NCBI GenBank assembly: GCA_041937175.2
Contig: CP166615.1
Location: 384,001 to 448,000 of the forward strand
Direction: 5' to 3'
DNA from: Limnothrix sp. BL-A-16
Lineage (GTDB): Bacteria; Cyanobacteriota; Cyanobacteriia; CACIAM-69d
DNA: 64,000 nt
Shown: one piece after another, positions 54,531-56,113 of the stretch
Numbering within the stretch: position 1 is the first letter of the stretch
Layout of the letters: every line of letters starts with the position of its first letter
The notes under the pieces: generated by a model
Told to the model about the DNA's origin: nothing
Databases searched by the model: none
Seen by the model: only the letters and a program-made list of their open reading frames with translations
Program-made: the position numbers and the translations under genes

Positions 54531-54541
54531 CAAGGGGCTTA
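54531..54541. repeat. Left half of the interrupted REP-like palindrome (right half at 56009-56018)
   Basis: CAAGGGGCTTA ... AGTCCCTTG rejoin to give CAAGGGGCTTAAGTCCCTTG. Confidence 0.85.
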
Positions 54542-54683
54542 GGGACTGTCGCCAAATCGCCTGAAACCCTGATTCCACCGTTGGCAGCTCGTGGGGGGCA
54601 AGGGGCTTGAGCATCTTGTTACAACGACTGGGATATGGAAAATCAATCGTTTCCACCTGATCTTAGGAAATGACGACAGGCCC
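54542..54683. mobile_element. MITE-like mini-element, family B (142 bp), inserted at the central TA of a REP
   Basis: TIRs GGGACTGTCGCCA / TGACGACAGGCCC (11/13). The TA duplication is visible once the IS110 is removed. Internal degenerate REP at 54599-54618. Confidence 0.8.
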
Positions 54684-54691
54684 TTGTATGT

Positions 54692-54910
54692 GGAAGGCGG
54701 TGGAGCAGGAAGGTTAAGCTCAGGCATAATCGACCCTCTCCCATCCGGTAGAGACTCTGGACAGGCCCTGAAGCTCCGAAGCTTGAGGCTTAGATTGAAG
54801 AGCCGACCGGAACCCGCCTTCCCGGACACTGCCAGTAGACTGAACAGTATTCAGAGTGACCGCTTGAGCGCTGTCACCTCGGATCAAGCAAGGGTAGCAC
54901 TGGGTCAGTG
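54692..54910 (+). ncRNA. Predicted bridge RNA with target-binding and donor-binding loops
   Basis: Stems GGAAGGCGG/CCGCCTTCC, CCGGT/ACCGG, CACTG-CCAGT/ACTGG-CAGTG. Guides: LTG ACAGGCCCT 54761-54769, RTG GGCTTAG 54787-54793, LDG ACAGTATT 54844-54851, RDG CAAG 54885-54888. Confidence 0.85.
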
Positions 54911-54939
54911 ACCGTCCCTCTTTCTTGTCCACCCCAACC

Positions 54940-55953
54940 ATGACTAATCCAATCTATATTCCCCTGGGCATCGACATCAGCAAACACCACTTCGATGTTG
55001 CCCTCTGCAAAGCACCCTCGACCGCTCGCAGCAAAAGTGCCTTTCACACCAGCCAGTTTGCCAACAACGAAACCGGATTTCACGAATTACTCGCTTGGCT
55101 CGAACAACACCAAGTCCACCACATTCATGCTTGCCTAGAAGCAACTAACATTTATGGTCATGAGTTGGCAGCCTTCCTGTATCAACGGGAGCAGCGGGTC
55201 AGCATTGTGAATCCTTCCCAAGTCAAGGGCTATGGGCAAAGTCGCCTGAAGCGCACCAAGAGTGACCAGGCGGATGCGGGAGTGATTGCCCAATTCTGTC
55301 GTGACCTGACTCCTCCCCTGTGGGAACCGTTACCGGAAGCCCTAGAGCAATTGCAGCAGCTTTCCCGCCGCGTGGAAGCGCTGATCTCGATGCGGACTGA
55401 GGAGAAAAATCGGTTGGACTCTTGCCGTAATCCCCACTTACAGACTGATCTACAAGCCCATATTGCCTATCTGTCGGAGCGGATTGATGACCTAAAAAAG
55501 CTTATGCGCGAGCATATTCGCGCCCATGAAGCCCTTGCTCATCAAAGCCAATTGCTCTGCTCGATTGTCGGCATTGCGGAAACCACCGCCACCAACTTGT
55601 TGGCGGAGATTGGTGTGATTCAGCGCTTTGCTTCCGCTAGACAATTTGCGGCTTTTGCAGGTCTCACTCCCCGAGAATTTATCTCGGGGACATCTGTTCG
55701 CGGCAAGACTCGATTGTGCAAAATTGGTAATGGTCGGCTGCGAAAAGCCTTCTATTTTCCAGCCTTGTCAGCCTGTCGCTATTGTCCTGAGATTGCAGCA
55801 TTTCGCAACCGATTAGTCGCGGCGGGCAAAACACCCATGCAAGCCATTGGCGCTGTGATGCATAAGCTGGCCAGGATTGTTTTTGGGGTGCTGCGGCATG
55901 ACAGACCGTTTGACCCCAGCCAACTGGCAGTCACCACAGAGCCTTGCTCTTAG
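54940..55953 (+). CDS. IS110 family DEDD transposase/recombinase
   Basis: GIDISK (D), CLEAT (E), KSDQAD (D,D), [18 protein letters not shown] (catalytic Ser), GNGRLR, A..HKLAR. Confidence 0.97.
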
Positions 55954-55980
55954 GCTTTACATTTTGTCACTTTCAGACCC

Positions 55981-56008
55981 TTGCGCCTCCTCGGCGAACA
56001 CAGTATCT
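55981..56008 (+). promoter_or_regulatory. Right-end half of the circle-junction promoter
   Basis: TTGCGC-N17-TATCT plus the T at 54685 gives -10 TATCTT only when the ends join. Confidence 0.7.
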
Positions 56009-56113
56009 AAGTCCCTTGCCTGGCGCTCAGGATTCTGATTTTTGATGTCGGTAGAGATTTTGAGTTGTGCTCTAATCAAAGATCTTTGACGGTGCTCGTT
56101 TTCCTACCTTCCT

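Follow-up and report, generated by a model that had tools for sequence, protein, structure and literature searches.

Between a manC-like gene and an EVE-domain gene of Limnothrix sp. BL-A-16, an insertion sequence (IS) of the IS110 family abuts a MITE (a miniature transposable element with inverted repeats), which itself interrupts a short palindrome, and the question raised by this locus is what directs the IS to such a site. The first-pass annotation of this DNA had proposed a three-tier hierarchy of repetitive extragenic palindrome (REP), MITE and IS110, in which a bridge RNA is aimed at the junction formed when the MITE inserted into the palindrome. Here the locus was analysed within a window of 64 kb (C1:384001-448000 of the genome), the coordinates of which are used throughout unless C1 is named, and the four genomic copies of the IS are referred to as copies 1-4. 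The IS is very probably an active element of the IS621 type (IS110 group), and a bridge RNA from its 5' non-coding end very probably programs insertion at the outer boundary of the MITE.

Nested structure of the locus

The outermost layer is a 20-bp REP-like palindrome split by the MITE into a left arm, CAAGGGGCT (54531-54539, plus strand, as are all parts of the nest), and a right arm, AGTCCCTTG, a T variant (56010-56018). The left arm is followed by the left copy of the TA target duplication of the MITE (54540-54541), where paralogous empty sites hold a single TA. The 142-bp MITE, designated family B (54542-54683), is bounded by 13-bp terminal repeats, GGGACTGTCGCCA and TGACGACAGGCCC (54542-54554 and 54671-54683), which match at 11 of 13 positions, and its centre is a variant of the same palindrome, CAAGGGGCTTGAGCATCTTG. 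In the left copy of a CT core (54683-54684), C closes the MITE terminal repeat and T corresponds to the opening base of the TA duplication, while the right copy (56007-56008) overlaps the right TA (56008-56009), the two together occupying 56007-56009. Between them lies the IS621-like element of the IS110 family (54685-56008; 1324 bp with one core copy), which runs TTGTATG...ACAGTATCT and is followed by AAGTCCCTTG ending at 56018. Its ends, TGTATGTGG... and ...ACACAGTAT, are not inverted repeats, and the absence of terminal inverted repeats and of any duplication beyond the shared core dinucleotide is as found in the IS110 group. The IS comprises a left-end non-coding region (LE) of 255 nt (54685-54939) upstream of a recombinase gene (54940-55953) encoding 337 aa with DEDD/RuvC-like and Tnp domains. 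The recombinase matched the Pfam families PF01548 (DEDD_Tnp_IS110; 4.2e-29) and PF02371 (Transposase_20; 2.6e-24), and the IS621 transposase of PDB 8wt6 (E 6.5e-68 over residues 9-328). Removal of the IS, the MITE and one TA leaves CAAGGGGCTTAAGTCCCTTG, the perfect form of the palindrome being CAAGGGGCTTAAGCCCCTTG.

The 142-bp repeat has the features of a MITE: it is short, non-coding and multicopy, with a length of 142-143 bp, 13-bp terminal repeats and a TA target duplication of the IS630/Tc1-mariner-like kind. BLAST returned 279 matches to it in the genome, of which 89 reach 120 nt or more, and pairing of terminal repeats gave 63 pairs at spacings of 79-319 bp, 35 of which were at 142-143 bp. 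Among the 40 pairs spaced 125-150 bp, TA was present on both sides in 27; both palindrome arms lay outside the TA in 13 and one arm in 9, and 11 had TA on both sides with no palindrome arm. With 512 palindromes among 117,024 TA dinucleotides, 13 of 40 MITEs in palindromes is far above chance (binomial 2e-21). The flanks of these 13 both-arm copies were rejoined with a single TA and searched in the genome; contiguous matches elsewhere that extend 35 nt or more to either side of the junction were obtained for 10, and the other 3 gave no spanning match. The rejoined sites E722139 (96-98% identity over 137-141 nt; 104 spanning matches) and E1321986, E3331424 and E4263721 (92-95%) matched without gaps, at 92-98% identity over 133-143 nt in all, and E214861 matched the same MITE at 96%, a case of a MITE nested in a MITE. 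Since rejoined empty sites match uninterrupted copies, the central TA of the palindrome is where the MITE inserts, and this TA is duplicated in the process. The restored palindrome and the 142-bp element within a duplicated TA, as the first-pass annotation had them, were confirmed by both the sequence and the empty sites.

An allele of the manC-EVE locus with palindrome and MITE and without the IS was sought and was found in contigs from three of the four public runs examined (X1, a lake metagenome; X3; X9). These contigs join 54682 directly to 56007, skipping 1324 bases with two bases (CT) common to both sides, and, with 1-3 differences, also cover the flank on the EVE side and the right-hand portion of the MITE; they are a natural allele with palindrome and MITE that lacks the IS. 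Because the joints skip precisely 1324 bases, the exact boundaries of the IS are confirmed. Conversely, a contig of X9 carries the IS between ...CCTACGGCGAT-GGAAATGACGACAGGCCC and CTAAG-CCCAGGCCAGGTAAGG..., a site that is empty in the genome at C1:1981174. The IS is polymorphic in both directions among near-identical strains and is therefore active or recently active. Its four genomic copies are 100% identical over 1325 bases with CT at both junctions in all four, and metagenome contigs carry copies that are 96-98% identical (L046, L048, L049 and L051). With paralogous empty MITE sites and an IS-less allele at the locus itself, the order palindrome, MITE, IS110 is established.

The target site and its empty copies

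The programmed site is ACAGGCC-CT-AA plus an extension GCC, 14 nt in all. Within it, the MITE contributes ACAGGCCC, with which its terminal repeat ends, and the duplicated TA, and only the next A and the extension come from the neighbouring sequence, so that any MITE insertion gives 10 of the 11 core target bases; where a palindrome arm is the neighbour, it supplies target position 11 and the three bases of the extension.

The left flank is ...ACAGGCCC|T at a MITE end in four of four genomic copies, four of four metagenome copies and the X9 insertion (9/9), and each of the metagenome copies L046, L048, L049 and L051 directly follows ...GACAGGCCC at an end of family B or family C. The hosts differ and share only the terminal repeat: full family B elements hold copies 1 and 4, L048, L049 and L051; copy 2 lies at an array of half-units; and family C, of about 195 bp, holds copy 3, L046 and the X9 site. 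Had most IS110 copies been situated away from family-B ends, the first-pass annotation would have been refuted, and the four genomic copies and nine insertions overall were instead all at MITE terminal repeats.

Empty sites of the same sequence are concentrated in the same position. All 31 empty copies of the perfect 14-mer ACAGGCCCTAAGCC lie at MITE ends, 29 of them with a palindrome arm, as compared with 0.05 expected by base composition. For ACAGGCCCTAA, 52 empty sites were found (51 at MITE ends, 34 with a palindrome arm; 2.25 expected), and for ACAGGCCCTAR, 80 (76 at MITE ends, 35 with an arm; 5.04 expected). GCC is the commonest continuation after ACAGGCCCTAA (31/52 sites). At the locus itself, the left end of the MITE and the left palindrome arm form a 13/14 match to the programmed site on the minus strand (54536-54549; ACAGTCCCTAAGCC), which is unoccupied.

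The census called for by the first-pass annotation also covered relatives. In the same-genus genomes G001 and G002, the MITE is present (53 and 45 scored matches), and the perfect 14-mer occurs in 12 and 17 copies, with 0 for the reversed control pattern. The IS was not found in the draft assemblies of these two genomes by DNA search, in which 2 of 41 genomes matched, namely the source genome and one with a 43-base chance match, or by protein search at E up to 1e-40, in which 1 of 8 genomes of the order matched. Since pads occur in G001 and G002, where the IS was not found, the landing pads do not depend on the IS.

Guides of the putative bridge RNA

In IS621, the left target guide (LTG) has nine bases and the right target guide (RTG) four, both including the CT core, and the target is 11 bp (7 + CT + 2) with an optional 3-base RTG extension (Durrant et al. 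2024, PMC11208160). In the LE of the Limnothrix element, a target loop was recognised at 54750-54808 with the LTG GACAGGCCCT (54760-54769), an inner hairpin (54770-54785) and the RTG GGCTTAG (54787-54793). The LTG GACAGGCCCU has the sequence of the MITE terminal-repeat end plus the CT core, and the RTG is the reverse complement of CTAAGCC at 7/7 bases, as had been read in the first pass. The LTG matches 9/9 in all 8 copies and the RTG 4-7/7.

The right flanks after CT in the genomic copies are AAGTCCCTTG, AAGCCCCTTG, AGGATTCTTC and AGGCCTGGTT, and that of L051 is AAGCCCCTTG; the contigs of L046, L048 and L049 end inside the IS. With the X9 insertion, six right flanks are known, of which three are a palindrome arm, one is AAGCC followed by other sequence and two are AGG..., and the RTG matches of the six are 6/7, 7/7, 4/7, 6/7, 6/7 and 7/7, scored over the CT core and the following five bases. 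The mismatches of copies 1 and 4 are the wobbles rG:dT and rU:dG; in copy 1, position 13 of the 14-nt site, in the T-variant arm, would pair rG:dT with the RTG. According to Durrant et al. (PMC11208160), rG:dT is tolerated at one left-target position of IS621.

Relatives retrieved by protein similarity carry the same scaffold with other guides. In L017, from an Oscillatoriales metagenome-assembled genome (MAG), the LTG is ACGCACCCT with an identical flank, and the right flank reads CTAC up to the contig end. The left guide of L016 matches its flank at 8/9. L024 has the LTG AGAGATCGT (9/9) and the right flank CTCACGT (7/7), and L018 has the right flank CTGAGG (6/6). For five copies in an Abditibacterium MAG (L019-L023), the LTG GGTGTCTCT matches 9/9 after a one-base alignment shift, and the right flank matches CTACAAA 7/7 in two copies and 4-5/7 in three. 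Covariation was measured as the longest suffix of a flank found in the target loop of its own element as compared with the loops of other elements. Left flanks scored 6-10 in their own loops versus at most 4 in those of other lineages in 7/8 rows, and right flanks scored 6-9 in their own loops for L018, L019 and L024; position 10 of the RTG changes from U to C to G as the flank changes from A to G to C. The guide assignment, including the RTG of the first pass, therefore holds: among relatives, a change in the flanks is accompanied by a change at the same positions of the loop.

A candidate donor-binding loop, proposed from sequence, lies at 54844-54892. The candidate left donor guide ACAGTAT (54844-54850) equals the right end ...ACAGTAT|CT, and the candidate right donor guide CAAG (54889-54892) complements CT|TG at the left end. 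The motifs GGACAGTAT and GCAAGG are conserved among relatives, as are the element ends, which leaves no variation on the donor side to compare.

Some further features of these relatives were recorded. A 42-bp copy of the target end and the IS left end precedes the full element in L017 (2204-2290; ACGCACCCTTGTATGTAGG... twice). The element of L019-L023 is 47% identical, and its five copies are situated at the foot of an inverted repeat (GTAGAGACACCGAT...ATCGGTGTCTCTAC) resembling a REPIN (REP doublet forming a hairpin); the left half of their flanks is invariant and the right half beyond CTAC variable, the pattern also observed for the Limnothrix element. An orphan left end, comprising only the first 212 nt and 88% identical to the IS, was identified on the minus strand of L050 (QLAH01000054.1, 1609-1820). 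It has both loops with other target guides (GATTCACCCT, GGTTCGTAG) and no recombinase gene behind, and may be a remnant or a solo bridge-RNA module. A search of a plasmid collection returned a single match at 64% identity, and L047, from the metagenome scan, was discarded as a chance match to a 20-mer (26% identity).

Probable mode of insertion and alternative explanations

By analogy with IS621, an RNA is presumably made from the LE, and recombination would proceed via a circular intermediate with strand exchange at CT. The LTG GACAGGCCCU would be read as the last bases of the MITE terminal repeat plus CT, and the RTG GGCUUAG would pair with CT-AAGCC. Because the MITE always duplicates TA, ACAGGCC-CT-A arises at each well-preserved end of every MITE insertion, and such ends are ready landing pads in intergenic repeats where an insertion does no harm. 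Owing to the strong preference of the MITE for the palindrome's central TA, AAGCCCCTTG is its commonest right-hand neighbour; the 3-base RTG extension matches this commonest context, with the palindrome arm a bonus rather than a requirement.

Several results weigh against this explanation. Right flanks are known for only 6 insertions, and the RTG match of copy 3 is just 4/7 including one true mismatch, for which either wide tolerance or a change of the flank since insertion would account. The left flank of L018 does not match its own loop (score 2; the sole miss of 8 rows), and in fixed columns the left count for L019-L023 is 1/9, with the 9/9 reached only by the one-base shift in alignment register. 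An Rfam scan of 54300-56300 at E up to 1 found no matching family, and a promoter scan gave 0 promoter-like sites. The single-sequence fold of the LE was no better than shuffles (z -0.89), and the consensus fold of the whole LE was weak (-4.09 kcal/mol; RNAalifold, 7 elements, with a poor MAFFT register), the inner hairpin of the target loop being out of register between lineages in the alignment. In the RNA library X14, the contigs span parts of the IS and none of the flanking genes, and contigs cannot show transcription.

The main competing explanation is the one first suggested for this locus, namely that the chimeric junction of MITE and palindrome is what the bridge RNA is tuned to, with the arm AAGCC as a selected and needed part of the target, and that the IS depends on two earlier events. 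The 7/7 pairing of GGCUUAG with CTAAGCC speaks for it, as do the excess of GCC after ACAGGCCCTAA, the palindrome arm in 29/31 perfect 14-mers, the right flank AAG(C/T)C in 4/6 known cases and the RTG matches of 6-9 bases in relatives, some orthologues also having longer RTGs (Durrant et al., PMC11208160). However, the palindrome arm is present at the right flank in only 2/4 genomic copies and 3/6 of all known cases: copies 3 and 4 lie at AGGAT and AGGCC without it, and in the X9 insertion AAGCC is followed by non-palindrome sequence. Nor are arm-bearing pads preferentially occupied (2/37 versus 2/47 other pads in the genome; 4/6 versus 40% availability, p = 0.19, a sample too small to exclude a preference). 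The metagenome RTG allele GACUUAG (CTAAGTC) fits the flank in the window better than the allele of the window itself and mismatches the AAGCC arm at L051, its own flank, so that the RTG extension is not strictly required, and the Abditibacterium relatives match beyond CTAC in only 2/5 copies. Tuning to the junction is thus considered unlikely; of the original proposal, the aim at MITE ends stands (9/9 insertions), and the aim at the palindrome arm does not stand as a rule.

Two other explanations deny the nesting or the target as such. The palindrome, the 142-bp element and the junction might form one composite repeat that spreads whole, the IS merely targeting this repeat; the palindrome is indeed also the centre of the MITE, and half-units of 68-69 bp occur in tandem arrays, such as that at the copy 2 flank. 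This is contradicted by rejoined empty sites that match uninterrupted copies gaplessly at 92-98%, and 11/40 full-size MITEs lie at TA sites flanked by no palindrome arm, while half-unit arrays are the expected product of self-nesting, of which E214861, a MITE inside a MITE, is an example; a composite repeat is accordingly highly improbable. A still smaller chance, close to negligible, is given to the reading that the shared left flank ...GACAGGCCC is an extended left end of the IS or that the MITE is mobilised with it. The 12 bases to the left of the IS are nearly identical in all copies, yet the same bases end at least 76 MITE copies that lack the IS and are retained in the natural empty allele. 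Further left the copies differ, those of copies 2 and 3 beyond about 12 nt, so that the 142-bp element does not travel with the IS, and relatives have other flanks that match their own guides.

Insertion programmed at the outer MITE boundary therefore remains our preferred explanation. A stronger form of it would make the IS an obligate parasite of a parasite: there would be no pad until the MITE inserts, the CT core being the last MITE base and the first TA base; the right guide would be tuned to the preferred arm; and the IS would spread only where the MITE family spreads. If this were true, the IS would follow, to the base, what two earlier transposition events had produced. We regard this form as doubtful. 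Each of the two RTG alleles has its match among the arm variants, GGCUUAG in AAGCC and GACUUAG in AAGTC, which hints at ongoing retuning of the guide.

The palindrome, related repeats and neighbouring genes

A total of 326 perfect copies of CAAGGGGCTTAAGCCCCTTG (652 strand matches) and 512 copies with at most 3 mismatches were detected in the genome. The window contains 3 matches, versus 0 in 100 shuffles, including those at 4789-4808 and 37325-37344 that the first-pass annotation had cited. The outer palindrome at this locus is a solo copy, of which only about 30-45 nt resemble other copies, and elsewhere the palindrome is the centre of several repeat families, including the 142-bp MITE itself. 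A second abundant MITE-like family of about 140-150 bp (e.g. C1 1499376, 2147479 and 98623), with the ends GAGGATGTCTGAAAAG / GAGAGGATGTCTGAAAAG, is likewise built around this 20-bp palindrome. One central module is thus common to several repeat families, and it is there that the 142-bp MITE lands by preference. The three-tier scheme of REP, MITE and IS110 is in consequence literally right at this locus; elsewhere the bottom layer is usually another MITE. The single Y1_Tnp match in the genome (C1:1721528) has no palindrome with at most 3 mismatches within 1.5 kb. The palindrome is named only REP-like because no association with a REP-associated tyrosine transposase was seen and most copies are centres of MITE families.

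Family C (about 195 bp; C1:2999880-3000076 and about 10 other places), host of IS copy 3, L046 and the X9 insertion, has the terminal repeats of the 142-bp MITE and a different interior. Tandem arrays of 68-69-bp half-units, each a palindrome half with one MITE arm, were located at C1:2787884-2788084, C1:327308-327510 and the copy 2 flank (C1:2154030-2155580); exactly such arrays would arise if the MITE inserted again and again into the middle of other copies. An autonomous partner with the same terminal repeats, which would share the end sequence TAGGGCCTGTCGTCA, was not found in the source genome, the only genome searched for it. Three DDE_3 (IS630-like) copies were rejected as MITE parents, their ends being unrelated, as was the only repeat pair of 0.5-3.5 kb with a frame of about 340 aa, which encloses a glycosyltransferase-like gene. 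At C1:3609964-3611241, two MITE copies flank a single 341-aa frame, glycosyltransferase-like by translation alone, in a composite-transposon-like layout.

The nest is flanked by the manC-like gene (53364-54503; NTP_transferase and ManC beta-helix domains) and the EVE-domain gene (56114-56605). In G002, where manC is 95% identical, the manC-EVE spacer has no palindrome and no IS and holds a truncated left arm of the MITE only, and it is not a clean empty allele. This spacer (L006, G002:C95, 1440-1500, minus strand) is about 53 bp long with two tandem MITE terminal-repeat starts, the truncated arm directly following the manC stop codon. In G001, the manC and EVE genes are not adjacent on C11.

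Comparison with known systems

No published IS110-type element aimed at MITE ends or at a MITE/palindrome junction was found in a search that left aside subscription papers and ISfinder; the two papers using both "bridge RNA" and "MITE" did so in unrelated contexts, and the palindrome sequence string appeared in no paper of the literature searched. The first-pass annotation knew of no description of the arrangement, and none came to light, but targeting of REPs and of transposon ends is already known in the superfamily. No new mechanism is involved: the superfamily is known to favour repeats and the ends of other transposons, as this element does. It nevertheless provides a well-resolved natural case of bridge-RNA targeting, with a defined 14-nt site, dozens of empty pads and strain-polymorphic insertions. 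Its guides vary naturally, and a relative combines the same scaffold with other guides. The element also lends itself, as a simple system, to the question of what the extended right guide contributes to specificity in nature.

Elements of the same superfamily, IS4321 and IS5075, reportedly target the terminal repeats of Tn21-family transposons and are thus likewise DEDD-transposase elements landing specifically on the terminal repeat of another transposon. They differ in being IS1111-group elements, whose guide RNA lies downstream of tnp and which have subterminal repeats, and in a target that lies in a large Tn3-family transposon on plasmids; their site is said to be within the terminal repeat and not at its outer edge. 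A second group of comparable elements comprises the REP-specific ISPpu9, ISPpu10, ISPa11, ISPsy8 and ISRm19/22 (Tobes & Pareja 2006, PMC1525189; for ISPpu9, PMC12288879), which also insert highly selectively into multicopy extragenic palindromic repeats, a safe harbour. In contrast, the repeat used in Limnothrix is a transposase-type MITE with terminal repeats and TA duplication, itself nested in a palindrome.

The closest likeness is to IS621. The recombinases are homologous, the core is CT and the ends are TGTAT... and ...ACAGTAT. Both (for IS621, see PMC11208160) have a target loop in the 5' non-coding end, in which the left guide reads as the top strand of the left target and the right guide is complementary to the right target, and both use a short abundant intergenic repeat as target and tolerate wobbles in it. 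The target of IS621 is the foot of a REP hairpin, whereas that of the Limnothrix element, which is known from sequence alone, is the outer boundary of a TA-duplicating MITE, with a core that straddles the junction of MITE and duplication, in a cyanobacterial host. The target range of IS621-like elements is thereby extended from REPs to the MITE/duplication boundary, and to cyanobacteria.

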